IMG/VR virus record: IMGVR_UViG_2864804954_000002
DNA: 38,722 nucleotides
Direction: 5' to 3' (one strand)
Origin: a virus
Shown here in pieces: positions 106-31,899 of the stretch. Position 1 is the stretch's first letter. Each line of letters begins with the position of its first letter. Below the pieces are notes generated by a model that made no database searches, was not told where the DNA came from, and saw only the letters and a list, made by a program, of their open reading frames with translations. The position numbers and the translations under genes were made by a program.

Positions 106-1212
106 TTATTTATCTGATTTAGTTCGATTACAAGGCTTACAGAGCATTTGCAAATTATCGTCTGTGGTTTTACCACCTTGAGACCAAGGGATAATATGAT
201 CTCCTTCCATTTGTTCTAGGCTAAAATGTTGATTACAACTTGGACATATACCAGATTGATTTTGATATGCTTTTTGCATTTGCTTGTCTTTAAAAGCTCT
301 CAATGACAAATATTTTTCGTGCCCTGTTAATAAATACTGATATATCCCTTTTTTATTTTCAACTTCATCATCTTCAATCAAATCTGAAATTTTCTGCTCT
401 AAAGCATTTTGATCTAGTATCTTATCTTTGTGTAAATTAAAAAGCTCGCCCCATGGTAAACCTTGCATTAATTTTTTACGTTTATTTGGAAAAGTTGCAC
501 CAACCCATGTAATAACAGACTGAAAGTATTGCCATAGAGCTAAGGCATTAGGATCTTTCTGATGAACAGCCATATAGCTTTCAATATTACCGTTATATTT
601 AACTAAATCTGCTTTGGAAATCCAAGAAAGAGCTGTTTCTAAAAAATCTTGGCGAATAGGAGAGCCATTAAGATAGTCAGAACCTATTGCATACGCTGGA
701 CAGTTAGTTTTACTGAAATATTTTTTAGCATCAGATACCCATGAGCCACTATATACTGCATTTCTTAATTCCTGTTTAAACAATGGCTTACCAGCAATAT
801 TAATAGTTTCAAACCATTTTAACTTTTCACTATCAGACCCAGTACAAACATAGACCATTAGTTTGTAGTCTAAAATTTGATCTTTTTCATCCTGATTTAA
901 ATTATGAAAGTAGCGCATTTCATATGCAAAATCACCTTTCACATATTGGCAAATAGATATAGTACGTTGTTGACCATCAATAATTTCATATGTTCCATTA
1001 TCACGAGTAGCCCAATACATCACATTTAATGGAAAGCCTTGCTTGACTGTATGAATAACAGCATTTCGCTCTTTTTCACCATAAACGAATTCACGTTGAT
1101 ATGGTGGGCGTACATCAAGTTCTCCATGATAAGCAGTAACCCCATTTTCAGCATTATCCTGATAATTATCAGTTAGTTCCCTAATGCTAATTTCTTTTAA
1201 TTCAATTTTCAT
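106..1212 (-). CDS. DUF262 (ParB/Srx-like, GmrS-type) N-terminal domain fused to a C-terminal HNH nuclease
   Basis: PPYQREFVY and IIDGQQR motifs typical of DUF262. C-terminal CPSC..H..DHIIPWSQGG..N..MLCKPCN is an HNH zinc-finger motif. Overlaps the upstream methyltransferase gene by 11 nt. Confidence 0.8.
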   Translation of the reverse strand: MKIELKEISIRELTDNYQDNAENGVTAYHGELDVRPPYQREFVYGEKERNAVIHTVKQGFPLNVMYWATRDNGTYEIIDGQQRTISICQYVKGDFAYEMRYFHNLNQDEKDQILDYKLMVYVCTGSDSEKLKWFETINIAGKPLFKQELRNAVYSGSWVSDAKKYFSKTNCPAYAIGSDYLNGSPIRQDFLETALSWISKADLVKYNGNIESYMAVHQKDPNALALWQYFQSVITWVGATFPNKRKKLMQGLPWGELFNLHKDKILDQNALEQKISDLIEDDEVENKKGIYQYLLTGHEKYLSLRAFKDKQMQKAYQNQSGICPSCNQHFSLEQMEGDHIIPWSQGGKTTDDNLQMLCKPCNRTKSDK

Positions 1213-2230
1213 GGTTAGAACCTAATGTTAAACGTTTTTTAATTAGAATACGGGCGTAAGTAGGTTTTCCATTAATAGCACCATCTTTATCTTTGATTAA
1301 TCCATGTTCTTTGAAAGGTATATTCTCATTAACTCGATAATCATTTGAGCTAATAATTTCAAATTGTGTAGGATTGTATTTGTCTAAAAATGTTATTGGC
1401 ACACCCATAGCACCATCATAATCACAAGGAATATCAACAACTTTATTCACATTAATAGCATCGTAGTTGTCATATTTAGGATAGTCTTGTTCATTGTACG
1501 AACGGTATAAAATTAATTCTTCGTGCCGTTTAGCATGTTCAAGATTCGTGAACCAACAAATATTTCCAAGGCTTCGCCATTTTTGCCCCGTTTCATCTTG
1601 CCAAAATCTTGTTTCTCTTGGCTCGTAATAATCAGGAACTTTAAACTTCATATCACCACTTTTATGACCAAGCCATAATTTATTATCTCGAATAAGTGAA
1701 AAGACTTCTTTATAAGTAATGGCATTTTGACTGCCAACAACTAAGAATGATTTTTCATGCTCAATTAATTGAGCTAGATATTCTCGAAATAATGAAAATG
1801 GTGGATTAGTTACAACAATGTCAGCTTCTTTAAGCAATTCAATACATTCATTAGAACGAAAATCACCATCACCCTTTAATGGTTGAACGTTGATTTCACT
1901 AATGTCAGGAATACCGTTACCATCTTTATCACCTGTGTAGGTGAGACAAATAGCTTGTTCGCTGTCATTTTGACTAAATAAATCGGTTTCACGACTCTTA
2001 TAGCAAGTAGCGATTAATTTCTTTAAACCTAAATGTTCGAAATTATAAGAAAAATAACGGAAGAAATTACTTACAAAAGGATCATCACAATTACAATAAA
2101 CTGTTTTATTTTGGAAATGTTGCTTGTAGTGTTTTAATTCATTTTCTATATCTGTAAGTTGAGTATAAAACTCATCTTCTTTTGCTTTACTAGCTCTATG
2201 CAAATTAGAGTTTTTGCCTGTCTTAGTCAC
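1202..2230 (-). CDS. N6-adenine DNA methyltransferase (EcoRI-methylase-like family)
   Basis: Catalytic motif IV VVTNPPF. The N-terminal DEFYT motif is seen in the EcoRI_methylase-type family. First gene of a two-gene operon with the DUF262-HNH gene. Confidence 0.8.
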   Translation of the reverse strand: MTKTGKNSNLHRASKAKEDEFYTQLTDIENELKHYKQHFQNKTVYCNCDDPFVSNFFRYFSYNFEHLGLKKLIATCYKSRETDLFSQNDSEQAICLTYTGDKDGNGIPDISEINVQPLKGDGDFRSNECIELLKEADIVVTNPPFSLFREYLAQLIEHEKSFLVVGSQNAITYKEVFSLIRDNKLWLGHKSGDMKFKVPDYYEPRETRFWQDETGQKWRSLGNICWFTNLEHAKRHEELILYRSYNEQDYPKYDNYDAINVNKVVDIPCDYDGAMGVPITFLDKYNPTQFEIISSNDYRVNENIPFKEHGLIKDKDGAINGKPTYARILIKKRLTLGSNHEN

Positions 2231-2452
2231 TATAACAACCTTTATAAATCCAATCTATACATCAAAAAAATCTTGAATCTTCTAAGTATAGTTCATCTCA
2301 ATCTAATAGATTACTTATCGCTAAAAATTTCCGTTATAAAATTTATTTAACATAAAAACTCTTATGCGAAACTTAAGCTACTTTGGTAGTGTTTGCCAAC
2401 TCTTTATAACTGAACTACTCAAAATTATAAGTTCTTTATCTACTATCTTAAT

Positions 2453-2830
2453 ATGGGCGTTCCCTTTCAGGTCGGGCTAGTTGGCTACGCTAAAGCCAAT
2501 CAAAGATTGTCTTCCCCCTTCGGGCAACATCCCTAACGCAAAAGCAAAAGCTTTGGACTATATATTACTACAGGACTTTCAAAACTTCTCACCGACAACC
2601 AAACTCATTGAACTTTATTTTAAGCGTGTTCAATGTCAACCCCACAAGGAGGTATGACATTGCCCCCTAGCTTAAAAATTTTTAAGTTCAATGGTTGTCG
2701 CAGCGATAAAGTTTGATGAAGGTTCAGATCAGATACCTTCTACATACTCCTTGAATAAGGATGTCGCTTCGCTCCGCTAAAAAGCGTTTGTTTAATGGAT
2801 TGCCACAGCTCCAAGAATGATGAAAGTTAG
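2453..2830. other. GC-richer structured noncoding island (candidate ncRNA or replication/entry element)
   Basis: No credible ORF. Many local hairpins: TTGGCT/AGCCAA at 2481..2499, a C(UUCG)G-type loop near 2515, GAAGGT/ACCTTC at 2719..2741 and TCCTT/AAGGA at 2748..2761. AT-rich DNA lies on both flanks. Confidence 0.5.
2593..2700. repeat. 108-nt nested perfect hairpin (four helices, 32 Watson-Crick pairs)
   Basis: CGACAACC 2593-2600 pairs with GGTTGTCG 2693-2700. ATTGAACTT 2607-2615 pairs with AAGTTCAAT 2684-2692. TTTTAAGC 2618-2625 pairs with GCTTAAAA 2670-2677. AATGTCA 2632-2638 pairs with TGACATT 2655-2661. The apical loop contains AAGGAGGT. Confidence 0.85.
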
Positions 2831-2870
2831 AAGCAAAAACAAGCTTATCTCTTATAAAATATAGTTGTAA

Positions 2871-2884
2871 TAATAGAGCTATTA
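2871..2884. repeat. Dispersed palindromic motif TAATAGAGCTATTA, exact copy 1
   Basis: Exact 14-mer, about 40 bp upstream of the early promoter -35. Confidence 0.9.
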
Positions 2885-2920
2885 ATAATTATAAATCATA
2901 TAAAAAACATTAGTTTATAG

Positions 2921-2949
2921 TTGATTTAGGTACAATGTACCTATATAAT
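2921..2949 (+). promoter_or_regulatory. Sigma70-type early promoter TTGATT-17-TATAAT with a 17-bp palindromic operator filling the spacer
   Basis: -35 TTGATT at 2921-2926 and -10 TATAAT at 2944-2949. The spacer TAGGTAC-aat-GTACCTA (2927-2943) is a perfect inverted repeat. Confidence 0.7.
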
Positions 2950-3045
2950 AGCAAGCATAAGGTGAAGAGATATAAAAAGCCTTAGAGGTGCAACGTGTAC
3001 CGACTGCCAGGACTAGCAGAAAACCTTAGTCTAGGATTTTACAAA

Positions 3046-3555
3046 ATGAACGCATTCGACTTTTCTAATAAAGCTTCTGATTCTTCTAAATTATTCCGTC
3101 TTGAAGCTTTCAGCTTTACTTTTGATTTTGGCTTAAACATCTATTTCGATGATATGGACGACCTTCGTGACATCATTGGCGATACAGAAATCGAGTTCTG
3201 GCAAGTTGAAGGATTGCGAGAAGACACGTACATGAACGTGGATAATTTTAAAGACCTTGAGACAGCTATAGAGCTAATCATGGAAGGGCATTTTCAAGAA
3301 GACCTAGACCTATTCAAACAACTAAAAAATGAGGGATATGTTAGAAATTTAGAAGATGCCCAAGAATGGCATGAAGAAAACCAATTCTGTGAAGATATGT
3401 CAGATTATGACTTCGGTCACTATCTTATGCACGATGTAAGCTGCATTGAGATCCCTGAAGCATTGCAAGGGTATATTGATTATGAAGCTTATGGTCGTGA
3501 TGCCTTAATAAATGACTTTGTACGTATAGGCAATTACATCTATAGCAACCATTAA
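3046..3555 (+). CDS. ardA: ArdA-like antirestriction protein (acidic)
   Basis: Very acidic 169-aa product. The C-terminal YIDYEAYGRDALINDF resembles the conserved ArdA C-terminal motif. AGGA lies 9 nt upstream of the ATG at 3046. The ORF track extends to GTG 2995, which has a GAGGTG 4 nt upstream and is an alternative start. Confidence 0.6.
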   Translation: MNAFDFSNKASDSSKLFRLEAFSFTFDFGLNIYFDDMDDLRDIIGDTEIEFWQVEGLREDTYMNVDNFKDLETAIELIMEGHFQEDLDLFKQLKNEGYVRNLEDAQEWHEENQFCEDMSDYDFGHYLMHDVSCIEIPEALQGYIDYEAYGRDALINDFVRIGNYIYSNH

Positions 3556-3569
3556 GGGGAGTTATAGAC

Positions 3570-3740
3570 ATGACTATTATTTCTTTATCTCCATGCACAT
3601 CTAAACTGCCTACAGTCAGCTTGTGTAAATTCTGCCGATCTGTTGTTAGTTTGAAATTTCAATATTTCGCAGGCTGTTTTAACTGTGCAAAAGTCTCTAG
3701 CAAGAATCAGGCTATAACTTTTATTGTTATAGGAGCTTAA
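3570..3740 (+). CDS. Small Cys-rich (zinc-ribbon-like) protein, 56 aa, not in the ORF track
   Basis: AAGGGGA lies 9 nt upstream of the ATG. Translation is MTIISLSPCTSKLPTVSLCKFCRSVVSLKFQYFAGCFNCAKVSSKNQAITFIVIGA, with CxxC...CxxC. Tightly packed between ardA and the next gene. Confidence 0.5.
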   Translation: MTIISLSPCTSKLPTVSLCKFCRSVVSLKFQYFAGCFNCAKVSSKNQAITFIVIGA

Positions 3741-3743
3741 AAG

Positions 3744-4061
3744 ATGAATGCACAAGTATTTAAATCTGAAGCTCTTAGCCGTTTAGCTGTTCGCCTTCCT
3801 GCTGCTGTTCCTGTTATGGCAAAGGTTGATATAGATAAAATTGTTCAAGTTGTAAAAGTTGAGTCAGGAGAGGTTTATATAATTTCCAAAGATACCAAAG
3901 GAAAATATGAAAAGCCATATCATGTTTGGATGATGCACAAATCGGGTTTTATTCTGAGATCTGCAAACGGTGTACTTGGTTATCACTCTGTTATTAGAGC
4001 TTTAAATGAACTTGAAAAAACGATTAAGCTAAAAGGACAACGTACCTTAAAATTGAATTAA
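3744..4061 (+). CDS. Hypothetical early protein (105 aa)
   Basis: ORF track entry. AGGAG lies upstream, and it starts 3 nt after the previous stop. No motif recognised. Confidence 0.6.
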   Translation: MNAQVFKSEALSRLAVRLPAAVPVMAKVDIDKIVQVVKVESGEVYIISKDTKGKYEKPYHVWMMHKSGFILRSANGVLGYHSVIRALNELEKTIKLKGQRTLKLN

Positions 4062-28266: not shown

Positions 28267-28587
28267 TTAGCCCTCAGTCTTTGATTGTTGGGCTTTTTTA
28301 GTACGTGGTTTAGATGTTTTATTAGTTTTAGGTTTATCTATCCCTATCAATTTGGATTGCTCTATAACGATCTGATTAGCATCCAGGGCATTGTAGATAC
28401 CTATCTCATGAGTAGTAATAGAAAACAGTTCAGGATGTTTGAAATAGGATTCAAATAAGGAAATAGGAATAGTTGGTCCATTTAAAATCAATTTTAGTTT
28501 GGTTGTATCTGTAAATTCAGGAATGATGTCTGAATATGTGACAAGTACGAGCTTGTCAGCTTGATAGATTTTATATACTGAATACAT
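28267..28587 (-). CDS. Hypothetical protein with a Lys-rich C-terminal tail (106 aa)
   Basis: ORF track entry only. Confidence 0.45.
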   Translation of the reverse strand: MYSVYKIYQADKLVLVTYSDIIPEFTDTTKLKLILNGPTIPISLFESYFKHPELFSITTHEIGIYNALDANQIVIEQSKLIGIDKPKTNKTSKPRTKKAQQSKTEG

Positions 28588-28784
28588 AGTTTCTCTTTTT
28601 ATTAGAAGTTTTATTTATTATTTTTGATGTCGTTTTCATATAAATATTAGTTATAGAAAACAGATTAATATATAACATATTTTTATTATATTGTCAATCC
28701 TTATAACTTTTAGGAATAAGAATACCTATTCTACATAGGCTATTTAAAACTATTTTTTGGAATACCAAATAAACAGAGTAGAAG

Positions 28785-28894
28785 CAGACAGTTCAATATA
28801 GAGTCCGTGTTGGGTACGGTAGTACACAATATGGATGATAGATTGAATACTGTCTGTTAATGGTTGATATGGTGCTGTGTCCGTTAGGATACAG
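28785..28894 (+). ncRNA. Candidate structured RNA, copy A
   Basis: P1 is CAGACAGTTCAAT (28785-97) pairing with ATTGAATACTGTCTG (28842-56) and has a 2-nt bulge. The inner hairpin is at 28805-19. The 3' hairpin CTGTGTCC-gtta-GGATACAG is at 28875-94. G.T pairs occur only on the plus strand. Confidence 0.5.
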
Positions 28895-29051
28895 TGACAT
28901 ATAAAGCATGTTACAGATACTAGATCTACAGAATCAGATAGAAATACCAATTCTATTTTTAAATTAATAATTAATTATCTTTTTAAAAGAAAGAGAAAGC
29001 TTTTTTCTATTCTTATATCTGATTGGTATTGAAAGAAAACAGGTTAGTAGG

Positions 29052-29164
29052 CAGTCAGTTCGATGTTTGATATGGATACGTGCCTGTTAAGGTACGGATA
29101 CAGATTAAAGATTGATTACTGACTGTTAAAGGTAAAGTCATGTTTGTGTCCGATAGGATACAAA
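29052..29164 (+). ncRNA. Candidate structured RNA, copy B (paralogue of copy A, 267 nt downstream)
   Basis: P1 is CAGTCAGTTCGAT (29052-64) pairing with ATTGATTACTGACTG (29111-25). The inner hairpin CGTGCC/GGTACG is at 29079-96. The 3' hairpin TTTGTGTCC-gata-GGATACAAA is at 29143-64. Changes relative to copy A are compensatory. Confidence 0.5.
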
Positions 29165-29287
29165 TATGGTTTTAGCTTGTTACTTCTAATTTATTAAATG
29201 TGGTTTCAGTGGCTTTGCATAAGAGTAGGAACGGAACGTCAGTTCTGTTTCTGGTCTTATCACTGAATACTATTAGAATGGAATGAG

Positions 29288-29345
29288 ATCTGAAGCTCCT
29301 TAGAGCTTTAGATTGAATGGTTATTCATTGCTTAATTCTTTTATT
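29288..29345 (+). terminator. Strong 11-bp hairpin, small hairpin and T-rich tract (candidate terminator of the ncRNA region)
   Basis: ATCTGAAGCTC-ctta-GAGCTTTAGAT (29288-29313, one G.T pair on plus), TGAAT-ggtt-ATTCA, then ttgcttaattcttttattcttt. Confidence 0.4.
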
Positions 29346-29878
29346 CTTTAAAAACAAGAAACAATAAATTCATATCTGTTGATAACTTCTACTTTTCCAT
29401 TACCCTACTTGTAATAGTAATGCAGAAATGTCAAAAAAATTAGACAATTTTATTTATAAAACCACTTAAAAACCCAATACTTATATGCTTATTTTAGATT
29501 TTATACACTGTCTAATTTTTTTAGAACATCTTTTTAATTTTTAGACTCTTTTAAATTTAAACTTTGAGCTGTTGTTGCGAACAACCAACATCTAAATCGA
29601 GTCACTATAGAAACAGAGCAACGTCAGATCAAAGTATCACGCCCATGATGGTATCAGATAATTGAAACTATTTGTTGGCGTGAATAACGCACCTTATTTT
29701 TTAATTGCAGTTGTGAATCAGATGTCTGATTAGGGGAATTTTTCTGTCTATTTTTTTCTAAAAAAGCTCTATTTCTCGTATAGAAATGCTAAATTTATTA
29801 GATGATCATTTATTTTACTTTATATAAATATCAATAACTTATATATTATTTACAATAATTTAATGTCAAAAAAAATAG

Positions 29879-29907
29879 TTGACATTGGTATTCAGATTTT
29901 ATACAAT
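29879..29907 (+). promoter_or_regulatory. Near-consensus sigma70 promoter TTGACA-17-TACAAT upstream of the helicase gene, overlapped by the inverted repeat AATGTCA-N11-TGACATT
   Basis: -35 at 29879-84 and -10 at 29902-07. The inverted repeat spans 29862-29886. Confidence 0.7.
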
Positions 29908-29994
29908 ATCCGAAACAGGGGATAAGCACCCTCTAACTGCTTAAACATATATAAATGACATGAAAATATAAGACCTATTTAGGTACACCCAATA

Positions 29995-31899
29995 ATGGAA
30001 TTACAAGATTTAATCATTGACGATGCAGTAAGTATCGAACAAAACACTCAAGAAAACACAATTACAATCAAAGCAGGCGACTCTTCTAAACGCCTTTCAG
30101 ATCTTATTAAAGACTTTCCTGAAAATTGCTATATAAATAAACAAATTACTGGCTGTGGCGGTACAACCCTTGTTTTAAGAAATGACGTTGATTATGTGGT
30201 ATTAGTACCATACGTTAATTTACTCAAATCTAAAGTTGCTGATAACGATCACCTAGACCATATCAATATCATTAAGCGTGGTGGTGAATGGACTGATAAT
30301 GATGCTGAGATTTCTGAACAATTAGCAGATCGTTCAAAGCCAAGAAAGATTATCTGCACATTTGATTCACTCCCTGCCTTGATGAAGATTAAAGGTTTTG
30401 TTCCAGGTGAGTTCAAGCTACTTGTTGATGAAGCGCATACCCTTGTTAATTTAGGTTCATTCAAAGCCCCTAAATGCGAGTTCATTCTGCATAACTACAG
30501 TAAGTTTGCATCGTATGTATTTTTGACAGCTACACCAACTAAACGTGAATATTTCCCTGATCTGATTGGATATTTACCTTTATGTACAATTGAATGGGAT
30601 AACGTAAGAGCTGTTAAATTTAACCTACAAAGATTAGATAAAGGTGTAAGTATCAACAATGCCTTATTTAATTTATGTTTAAGCTTCTTACTTGGTCGTG
30701 AAGAAGGCAACGCACATATCTTCTATAATAGTGTCAAAGAAATCACTCAAGTTATGGAGTGGTTAAGCAAGATTGTTGGTACTGATGGAAAGCCTGTTTT
30801 TAATCGTGATGAGATCCGATTGATTTGTTCTAAGTCTGCTCGTAATGAAAAGAAACTAGATACTAAATTAGGTGCATGGGGATTAGTTGACGATGTTGTA
30901 GAAAAGCCAGTAGGTAAGCTGAACTTCTATACCTCTACAATGTTCGAAGGTGCTGATATTTATGATGAGCATGGTAAAACCTACATCATCATTAATGGTT
31001 TACGTGATTATACCAAGATTGATTTTGCAGTCCTTGTACCTCAAATTTGTGGTCGTTTAAGAGACAGCCAATATAACGAATCTATCAATATTTTATTGAG
31101 CAATGTTCCTGAAGTTGCAAGTTGCACTAAGGAAGAATGGCAATCAAATGTTCTGACTAAGATTAAAGGTTCAAACGATTTACTTGAAGCTTTGAATAGT
31201 CCGACCAATAAAGATAAGCCTGCTGTTGTAAAAGCACTTTTAGACAGTATCGGTAAAGACCCATACATTTTCTTAAACGATGAAACCAAACAATTCTATG
31301 TATCTGATGTTGCTTTAAAATCAGAACTTCAATCTTTTGAAGCTATGGAAGCAACGTATGTAGTACGTGATGTTGAAGGCGTTGATCATAACGCTTCAGG
31401 TTATTCAGCTTCATTCCGTGAACTATTAACTGATGAATCAAAACAGGTTCAATTTACTAGCCCAATCTCAGGTATGTCTAAGCTCTTGAGTGGTTATCAA
31501 AGTTTTAGTGAAACGATGGAAGAGTACGTTTCTGCTAAAGAGAAGCAAGATGATCAAATCGTTGCCTTGATTGATGCTCGAAATAAGAACTTTGCTAAAT
31601 ACTATGATGCTCTTGGACCTGAAAAGATCAAAGCATTGCGCTATAGAAATAAAGATATTGATGAACTGTATGAAGCCCAATTTGCTGCTACAGACAATAA
31701 ACGCACTATCCAGACTAGATTAGCTCTACGTTTAAGTGATTTTATTTCTAACGCTGAAGCAAAAGAGAGATTAAGAACAATCTATGAAGCTTTAGAAATT
31801 AATAGAACTCCAAAAGCAAAAGATTTATTTGATTGGTATGATTTAAAACCAACAAAATTTAAAGGTGAAAATGGATTATTGGTTATTAAGATCAAATAA
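29995..31899 (+). CDS. SF2 (DEAH) helicase-like protein, probable replication function
   Basis: Motif II LLVDEAH, motif III LTATP and motif VI QICGRLRD are present. Motif I reads TGCGGTT, with no Lys. Confidence 0.6.
   Translation: MELQDLIIDDAVSIEQNTQENTITIKAGDSSKRLSDLIKDFPENCYINKQITGCGGTTLVLRNDVDYVVLVPYVNLLKSKVADNDHLDHINIIKRGGEWTDNDAEISEQLADRSKPRKIICTFDSLPALMKIKGFVPGEFKLLVDEAHTLVNLGSFKAPKCEFILHNYSKFASYVFLTATPTKREYFPDLIGYLPLCTIEWDNVRAVKFNLQRLDKGVSINNALFNLCLSFLLGREEGNAHIFYNSVKEITQVMEWLSKIVGTDGKPVFNRDEIRLICSKSARNEKKLDTKLGAWGLVDDVVEKPVGKLNFYTSTMFEGADIYDEHGKTYIIINGLRDYTKIDFAVLVPQICGRLRDSQYNESINILLSNVPEVASCTKEEWQSNVLTKIKGSNDLLEALNSPTNKDKPAVVKALLDSIGKDPYIFLNDETKQFYVSDVALKSELQSFEAMEATYVVRDVEGVDHNASGYSASFRELLTDESKQVQFTSPISGMSKLLSGYQSFSETMEEYVSAKEKQDDQIVALIDARNKNFAKYYDALGPEKIKALRYRNKDIDELYEAQFAATDNKRTIQTRLALRLSDFISNAEAKERLRTIYEALEINRTPKAKDLFDWYDLKPTKFKGENGLLVIKIK

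Follow-up and report, generated by a model that had tools for sequence, protein, structure and literature searches.

We analyzed a 38,722-nucleotide (nt) stretch of viral DNA (IMG/VR record IMGVR_UViG_2864804954_000002; hereafter, the window) and found that a 1.4-kb spacer within it carries two tandem hairpin units that fold strongly on the plus strand, recur in related elements and maintain their pairing by compensatory changes. The window is an Acinetobacter phage-plasmid whose spacer is 100% identical to that of plasmid NZ_CP092455.1 (Acinetobacter sp. AHP123), which contains terminase, portal, capsid, parA and antirepressor genes and a toxin-antitoxin pair. A first-pass annotation had proposed the two units, A (28782-28914) and B (29049-29183), as a candidate pair of noncoding RNAs (ncRNAs). 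We tentatively prefer to regard them as plus-strand single-stranded-DNA hairpin signals of an origin region, used as priming or loading sites; transcribed plus-strand ncRNAs are nearly as likely, and RNA is no more likely than origin hairpin DNA. The units constitute a new family, either of plasmid single-strand origin signals or of plasmid or phage structured RNAs, that is not demonstrably a new kind of system; to date, it has been found only in mobile elements of Acinetobacter and in related uncultured contigs.

Two paralogous units share a two-hairpin fold

The spacer (28588-29994) is bounded by a leftward 106-amino acid (aa) gene and a rightward 634-aa gene. As the first-pass annotation had it, 28590-29990 holds no credible open reading frame (ORF), its only ORFs being of 66, 38 and 33 aa, and the units lie between the accessory and toxin-antitoxin genes and the helicase/antirepressor operon of a phage-plasmid. 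Both copies of the proposed fold are present, with starts 267 nt apart. In each, an interrupted stem of ~30 bp (P1, longer than the 13-15 bp first given) is followed by 1-3 unpaired nt, a long hairpin (P2) and the tail GTTAC. The motifs reported to differ between the copies were found in both units (CAGACAG/CTGTCTG in A versus CAGTCAG/CTGACTG in B; GTTAATGGT versus GTTAAAGGT), as was the 3′ hairpin apex GTGTCC-GTTA/GATA-GGATAC with its flanking pair of C-G versus T-A. A conserved linker had been described ahead of this hairpin; its sequence is there, but it is not free, because its A(A/T)G pairs with the C(T/A)T of the conserved GC(A/T)TGTTAC; this makes the 3′ hairpin a helix of 22 pairs, P2, lying directly against P1.

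When folded as RNA, the plus strand yielded z scores of −8.4 (A) and −10.6 (B), with none of 200 shuffled sequences folding as well, compared to −4.5 and −4.0 for the minus strand. DNA energy parameters gave −9.1 and −11.2 for the plus strand versus −3.6 and −2.8 for the minus strand; the units thus form strand-specific hairpins that are stable as DNA, as expected of a single-strand initiation or origin signal. Sliding-window folding located plus-strand structure at 28740-28950 and 29010-29340; the minus strand showed no similar structure. Conserved sequence clusters at the P1/P2 junction (CAGNCAGTT..., ...CTGN′CTGTTAAWGG and ...GCWTGTTAC), and the apical parts are variable. The flank that precedes P1 has the form (T)TGGTATT-AAA-AAACAG-(N)-GTAG, of which a diverged version occurs in the contig L097 (loci compared with the window are designated by L numbers). 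The features of the region are collected in Table 1.

Table 1 Features of the spacer and the adjoining gene (window positions)
Feature	Positions	Strand	Evidence
Unstructured conserved 5′ flank of unit A (TTGGAATACCAAATAAACAGAGTAG)	28755..28781	+	Homologous flank before units in ~35 contexts
Unit A P1, basal CAGACAGTTCAAT / ATTGAATACTGTCTG, "alpha" apical hairpin	28783..28858	+	Folds; covariance model 79.5 bits; basal pair counts
Unit A P2, base ATG/CAT, apex GTGTCC-GTTA-GGATAC	28860..28909	+	Fold; 22-pair count over 8 homologues
Unit A 3′ tail GTTAC, conserved	28910..28914	+	Also after P2 in the diverged L097 units
Small AT-rich hairpin ATAGAA-ATACCA-TTCTAT, then T run	28936..28962	+	Read from sequence; conserved after "a" units
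Conserved 5′ flank of unit B (GATTGGTATTGAAAGAAAACAGGTTAGTAG)	29021..29048	+	Nearly invariant upstream of "b" units
Unit B P1, basal CAGTCAGTTCGAT / ATTGATTACTGACTG, "beta" apical hairpin, loop CCTGTTAAGG	29050..29127	+	Folds; covariance model 99.2 bits
Unit B P2, base AAG/CTT, 19-bp stem, apex GTGTCC-GATA-GGATAC	29129..29178	+	Folds; pair counts
Unit B 3′ tail GTTAC, conserved	29179..29183	+	Fold comparison
Hairpin block C: H1 29200-29273, H2 core 29287-29314	29200..29326	+	Fold z = −7.0; sliding-window folding
AT-rich tract with repeated TGTC(T/A)A(A/T)TTTTT motifs	29330..29560	.	GC 0.23-0.26; direct and inverted repeats
Repeat AATGTCAAAAAAAATAG overlapping strong helicase promoter TTGACA-17-TACAAT	29862..29907	+	Promoter score 14.7 vs 6.4 ± 1.8 in random windows
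SF2 helicase-like protein of 634 aa, probable initiator	29995..31899	+	Fold prediction; motifs

Homologues keep the stems by compensatory changes and exchange of apical hairpins

Related units were found in 24-27 PLSDB plasmids, all from Acinetobacter and covering at least 12 species, where they are annotated in none, as well as in 12 IMG/VR contigs and in further genome and metagenome contigs; searching a phage collection gave no DNA match to the units. Most carriers have two tandem units, "a" and "b", 240-300 nt apart, and in pBJAB0715-type plasmids P1 of unit B is 95-97% identical to that of the window. L097, a diverged contig that resembles a phage-plasmid and encodes a helicase of 43% identity, has two units that score 50 and 42 bits with the covariance model. 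For comparison, we used a set of 29 distinct units, drawn from 24 Acinetobacter plasmids and from viral and metagenome contigs, for which TGTTA(C/T) at the 3′ end was an extraction requirement.

In the basal helix of P1 (21 distinct sequences), 96.8% of the cells are paired, and pair 8/77 occurs as U-A (11), A-U (6) and C-G (3) with a single mismatch. The real register surpassed all 500 shuffles, in cells paired and in covariation score, and also every slid register. P2 (8 distinct sequences) likewise surpassed all shuffles and slid registers; both sides have changed in 10 of its 22 pairs, including base pairs that compensate for TTAATGG in A versus TTAAAGG in B. The homologues represent few independent lineages, and the patterns used to gather them fixed CAGNCAGTT and TGNCTGTTAA, so that part of the invariance of those columns reflects the gathering itself. 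At least five unrelated hairpins replace the apical part of P1, and P2 falls into two classes with a common apex design. The fold is thus real, paralogous and conserved, and its stems are kept, between A and B and among homologues, by compensatory changes and by whole apical-hairpin swaps. Tandem units of one plasmid nearly always differ at the N-N′ pair; L008, which has an A.A mismatch at this position, looks like an a/b recombinant.

The pairing is specific to the plus strand

Over the 29 units, the plus strand contains 139 G.U(T) pairs among 1276 pairs (11%), whereas the minus strand contains none. Almost all 1×1 mismatches are purine-purine (A.G or G.G) when read on the plus strand and A.C, C.U or C.C when read on the minus strand, for which the folding energy is about half as large. 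Neither a symmetric cruciform nor a double-stranded protein site is compatible with this bias of wobble pairs and mismatches toward one strand. The earlier argument from G.T pairs for a plus-strand RNA rather than a DNA cruciform is therefore upheld as to the strand, but it does not establish RNA, since the asymmetry fits single-stranded plus-strand DNA equally well and does not separate the two.

The apical loops begin with G and end with A in 52 of 58 cases (GUUA 18, GAUA 17, GAA 7 and GGUA 4), a canonical GNRA loop being present in only 3; these loops are inherited and are not independent samples. RNA families prefer GNRA and UNCG loops, whereas d(GNA) and d(GNNA) loops closed by C.G form unusually stable DNA mini-hairpins. 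The loop types of the units fit the DNA mini-hairpin rule better than the RNA preferences.

The units lie in the replication region of a replicon typed as lacking Rep

Rightward from the units, the spacer and the genes beyond it present block C, the AT-rich tract, the repeats, the 634-aa gene, an antirepressor gene and parAB. This order and orientation were the same in every helicase or P-loop replicon examined, and downstream of the units there is nearly always block C or else a small hairpin, together with an AT-rich tract, repeats and a gene resembling a helicase. The units occur alongside three replication gene sets that are unrelated to one another: the 634-aa helicase, the P-loop protein of 440 aa in pBJAB0715-type plasmids, and the Toprim/DnaD-like set of pANC7892.1. 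Their occurrence beside unrelated replication proteins implies a host factor. One copy was found in a plasmid of 8.9 kb that has another set of replication genes. Four whole plasmids contained no extra or opposite-strand copies.

The 634-aa protein had no match in Pfam, NCBIfam or PHROG, and its AlphaFold2 model (predicted local distance difference test score of 86) has a generic SF2 fold of the RecQ/Hel308/Mfd/DEAD type. DEAH and TAT motifs are kept, and motif I is an invariant TGCGGTT that does not have the Walker-A lysine. The protein is probably the initiator of a replicon now typed as lacking Rep. There are ~260 relatives, mostly on 35-40-kb Acinetobacter contigs, and distant ones (~30% identity) lie in ordinary phage early operons without a long spacer (L099). 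In the leader of the gene (29914-29994), the tiny ORFs ATG ACA TGA and ATG AAA ATA TAA stop just before the hairpin GACCTATTTAGGT, which holds the only Shine-Dalgarno-like AGG; ATATAAATGACA and the hairpin are conserved in all helicase loci read. This arrangement suggests translational coupling or control of the replication gene.

Among Acinetobacter plasmids, 437 of 1846 (about a quarter of the complete ones) have no recognizable Rep, their mode of replication "remains to be established", and a novel Rep or priming by a small RNA has been proposed for them (PMC12284255). The pBJAB0715-type plasmids are not pNDM-BJ01-like (PMC5571222). The units occur in the replication region of two Rep-less backbones; relatives in the first group carry NDM-1 or OXA-58 carbapenemases, and the second is a family of ~37-kb phage-plasmids. 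From the order of the parts and the Rep-less carriers, we infer that an unrecognized replicon has its origin and control region here. The units mark this type of replicon, called "Rep-less" by current typing schemes, and help to dissect it by supplying concrete parts: the units themselves, the AT-rich and repeat region, and a helicase-like or P-loop gene.

The AT-rich tract is, from its composition and repeats, a candidate unwinding and initiator-binding region. Copies of TGTC(T/A)A(A/T)TTTTT occur at 29427-29443, 29508-29521, 29744-29757 and 29862-29878, and the segments 29433-29446 and 29509-29522 form an exact inverted repeat of 14 nt. In the helicase promoter (29879-29907), the −35 hexamer is overlapped by the last of these copies, and the whole set resembles the iterons or operators of a replication gene that regulates itself. 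Farther right, a long hairpin with imperfect arms (29561-29578 / 29618-29635) precedes a short GC hairpin with a T run, at ~29677-29702; the arms within this 29561-29705 stretch covary in L087, and its folding was not significant relative to shuffles. Other replicon subgroups have a block in a similar place, also structured but of different sequence (GAGC...AACCAACCGACTG...CAGAGGGCGG).

Hairpin block C, whose H2 core is GATCTGAAGCTC-CTTA-GAGCTTTAGATT, includes two stretches that had been interpreted otherwise. The proposed degenerate third copy (29237-29275) was not recovered by the covariance model, which gave only two plus-strand matches in the window, and the stretch belongs to block C. Likewise, the suggested terminator at 29288..29345 was not borne out, as the hairpin 29288-29314 was not terminator-like in our scan and the T-rich tract begins ~25 nt later. 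In 17 distinct homologous contexts, the plus-strand folding energy of block C exceeded that of the minus strand, about twofold in most. The block shows covariation and is kept in most helicase replicons, including ones from which the units have been lost; it is absent from L087, L088 and the 440-aa-type replicons.

The units are dispensable to the replicon. In L010, L012, L104 and L110, insertion sequences interrupt them or they have been replaced at a pdif-like site; L087 and L088, with a helicase of 84% identity, have no units at all. We noted insertion-sequence ends in or adjoining the units in at least five contexts (L004 4001; L096 8796-8815; L010 2950-2990; L104 2290-2310; L012 2580-2950), which are of the IS3 family in L004, L096 and L012 and were not assigned to a type in L010 and L104. 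The hairpin region is either an insertion hot spot or tolerant of disruption.

Plus-strand DNA hairpins as possible origin signals

If the units are single-stranded-DNA signals, an initiator, probably the SF2 helicase-like protein, would bind the repeats at 29427-29878 and open the adjoining AT-rich tract, with unwinding proceeding leftward. Most SF2 helicases move 3′→5′, and one of this polarity would track the plus strand. The exposed plus strand may then fold, beginning with block C and continuing with B and A, into hairpins that would resist coating by single-strand-binding protein and display the conserved junction (P1 base, CTGTTAA, P2 base and GTTAC). A host enzyme (primase, primosome or RNA polymerase) could recognize this junction. 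CTGTTA is present in every case, and CTG is the triplet at which enterobacterial DnaG prefers to start; we treat this as a lead only. Complementary-strand synthesis on the plus-strand template would run leftward, the direction in which the long structural operon is also read. Were this correct, the units would be parts of a helicase-initiated, host-primed mode of replication that is undescribed for Rep-less Acinetobacter plasmids.

The dispensability of the units accords with this model, as plasmid priming signals are non-essential, and we count in its favor that L097 has small related hairpins in both orientations around its TAGTGAAC repeats. The search for promoters bears on it as well, because the flanking genes diverge and a plus-strand RNA would need to start inside the spacer. 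A consensus scan found no promoter upstream of either unit, and no sigma-70-like promoter stands out in the flank of unit B. The best weight-matrix scores upstream of ~35 units (3-10) were at the level of random windows (6.4 ± 1.8), compared to 14.7 for the helicase promoter.

Several observations weigh against DNA signals. The promoter models were a simple consensus and a weight matrix applied to an AT-rich genome, and a real promoter could be missed. Only from the AT-rich tract and the repeats do we infer that the region is an origin, and exposure of its DNA as a single strand is a supposition. The 11% wobble pairs, the frequent A-U/G.U/G-C intermediates and the tandem G.A pairs are more typical of RNA, and P2 of unit B scores as an intrinsic terminator. 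The units fall outside the minimal conserved replicon, L087 and L088 possess neither units nor block C, and in L096 one copy lies ~2 kb from the repeats of an unrelated replicon. In mobilizable plasmids, finally, the strand of the units is inconsistent with respect to the expected transferred strand, the relaxase gene being on the opposite strand in L012 and on that of the units in L146.

Alternative explanations

Almost as probable is that the units are transcribed plus-strand ncRNAs, either a pair of paralogous small RNAs (~135-170 nt) or parts of a single ~560-nt A+B+C transcript. They may control copy number, incompatibility, immunity or defence, by loop contacts or with a conserved factor of the host or plasmid. 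Strand-specific structures conserved in mobile elements mostly prove to be RNAs, and the very strong plus-strand RNA folds, the pairing statistics of P1 (with its U-A/A-U/C-G pair) and of P2, and the combination of G.U with tandem G.A pairs all fit this explanation. The conserved unstructured 5′ flank could represent a leader or seed; against this, conservation is found mostly inside the junction helices of P1 and P2, not in a single-stranded seed, and the loop types are atypical of RNA. When tested as an intrinsic terminator, P2 of unit B was terminator-like because its A run pairs with its T run, and T-rich tracts follow other variants after 0-40 nt; P2 of unit A and the alternative P2 class have no T run, however, and that of unit B is paired. 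The small hairpin at 28936..28962, where AATACCAAT is the inverted partner of ATTGGTATT at 29022-29030, was not rated a terminator by the scan. As for transcription, promoter-like sites end 74-77 nt upstream of both L097 units (scores of 8.7 and 9.6), whereas the window's lineage has no conserved promoter even though a start inside the spacer would be needed.

Searches for a known RNA or a target gave little. The whole window had no matches in Rfam 15, including its C4 antisense, plasmid copy-control, 6S and Y RNA families, at gathering score, which confirms the earlier impression that no described family is present; relaxed thresholds (28500-30050) returned only chance-level miRNA and snoRNA matches (E of 0.7-7), and the homologous spacers of L097 and L007 had no matches at E ≤ 1. 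The window contains no tRNA or tmRNA, and no RNA-binding protein is recognizable among its products. Exact complementary seeds of 9-11 nt occurred at no more than chance level over both strands of the window, with no antisense match of 11 nt or longer beyond chance. In L097 only, there is a suggestive 14-nt complementarity, in which a reverse hairpin in the helicase leader (GGCTTAACAGCC) is perfectly complementary to upstream GGCTGTTAAGCC hairpins. Our literature search found nothing on the unit sequences or the replicon. In its most specific form, this explanation makes the units structured plus-strand RNAs of a new class, each a transferable pair of hairpins whose junction is conserved and whose apices are interchangeable. 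Acinetobacter plasmids and phage-plasmids would carry them beside a hitherto unrecognized helicase-type replicon, and they would act through a host factor on replication, incompatibility or immunity. We view that version as possible and hold it with somewhat less confidence. If the units are RNA at all, they form a structured RNA family that is new to description and has so far turned up in mobile elements of Acinetobacter only.

We consider it improbable that the units are cis-acting RNA elements in read-through transcripts, either tandem terminators that insulate the origin or put-like antiterminators leading into the helicase/antirepressor operon. Such elements would account for the lack of a promoter of their own, the two adjacent hairpins 1-3 nt apart, the hairpin and T-run features after each unit and the placement at the boundary of accessory genes and replicon. 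The left-hand gene, however, is transcribed away from the units, leaving no obvious incoming transcription, and the helicase gene has its own strong promoter. Moreover, no T run follows P1, and the junction sequence is conserved even at 43% helicase identity, which simple terminators do not need. Of the features of HK022 put elements, the two-hairpin geometry is present; the upstream promoter was not found in the flanks of the units. Least credible of all is that a plasmid protein binds the units as double-stranded DNA, be they iterons, operators, a centromere or a cruciform: CTG(T/A)TAAGG recurs three to four times per locus and inverted TTGGTATT / AATACCAA flank the inter-unit spacer, but the stem arms covary (P1 pair 8/77; 10 of 22 pairs in P2) instead of conserving sequence, whole apical modules are replaced by unrelated ones, all wobble pairs and mismatches favor one strand, and the spacing is irregular.

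Other identities were rejected as well. Short ORFs after UAAGGAG-like loops differ in length and frame among homologues (MNKKLVIG, 18-aa and 15-aa products), with an AUG spacing of 0-2 nt. A conjugative transferred-strand signal is contradicted by the inconsistent orientation of the relaxase gene relative to the units, already noted for L012 and L146; pZS-1, typed as "MOBP", is a phage-plasmid without an annotated relaxase. GC skew tracks gene orientation and was uninformative for the origin or its direction. By eye, no hairpin-borne −35/−10 hexamers of the F Frpo or M13 style were consistent, and neither IHF nor pdif/XerCD consensus sequences fit. Read directly, GTTAATG and GTTAAAG do not match the GTTRRRY of integron attC sites, no RYYYAAC partner is present at the 5′ base, and protein scans covering part of the window ORFs found a resolvase and no integrase. 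Mimicry of a tRNA anticodon loop by CUGUUAA or CUGAUAA was dismissed because the flanks form no anticodon stem and the loops are G-N-N-A tetraloops on C-G/U-A closing pairs.

Comparison with known systems

One set of known elements comprises the phage G4 complementary-strand origin, the M13/f1 minus-strand origin with its two adjacent hairpins, ssoA/ssoU of rolling-circle plasmids and plasmid ssi sites. Like the units, these are strand-specific imperfect hairpins of 130-150 nt that are promoter-free and fixed in orientation relative to the replication genes; they also combine a conserved base or junction with variable stems, are modular, exchangeable, dispensable and dependent on host factors, and can be tandem. 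Plasmid pMV158, for example, carries two single-strand origin signals. To our knowledge, the units have no sequence similarity to these signals. They differ in that their carriers are 35-65 kb double-stranded plasmids and phage-plasmids without an HUH Rep and in that wobble pairs are commoner than expected; priming by the units is suggested by analogy.

The oriV of IncQ plasmids (RSF1010) resembles the locus in having repeats, an AT-rich tract and hairpins with a conserved base, with a plasmid helicase or helicase-like protein encoded beside the origin. IncQ oriV combines iterons and the AT-rich tract with ssiA/ssiB, a helicase and a primase, whereas in the window's lineage the hairpins are on one strand only and no plasmid primase is recognizable. 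In addition, the helicase is SF2-like rather than a RepA-type hexameric enzyme, and the units are dispensable whereas the IncQ ssi sites are essential.

Among RNAs, P1/P7 c4, P4 CI and HK022 put likewise form structures on the sense strand ahead of an operon that includes an antirepressor; a further likeness is that a genome has two copies whose differences compensate one another, and put consists of two stem-loops 1 nt apart. In contrast to them, the units have no Rfam match (C4 included), no upstream promoter and no complementary target in the window, and they occur also in plasmids without any phage genes. The RNA II/RNA I system of ColE1-type plasmids is similar in its run of stem-loops over several hundred nt upstream of a probable origin in Rep-less plasmids. 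Here, however, neither a 5′ promoter nor an antisense promoter was found, a probable initiator protein and repeats are present, and the units can be lost.

Further features of the spacer and flanking regions

At the left end of the spacer, a 150-bp block (28592-28745) just upstream of the leftward 106-aa gene (phrog_23923) is ~92% conserved among otherwise different plasmids and includes the palindromes AGAATACCTATTCT and CCTATTCTACATAGG. In pBJAB0715-type plasmids, a ~120-aa gene with an apparent signal peptide is inserted between the homologue of this block and the first unit. The gene-free spacer of L097 is longer (2.75 kb, 1240-4000) and contains approximately seven copies of a 19-nt repeat (TAGTTATAAATAACAGTAG) and TAGTGAAC repeats in both orientations, along with approximately eight forward and two reverse small hairpins (GGC-TG(T/A)(T/C)AA-GCC), one of the reverse copies being in the helicase leader; three strong promoters lie within 350 nt of the helicase start. 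Elsewhere in the window (106-2230), genes for a GmrSD-HNH endonuclease and an EcoRI-like adenine methyltransferase beside ardA are unannotated in NZ_CP092455.1, and from this difference in gene content the window is a variant of that 37,296-bp plasmid with another accessory island.

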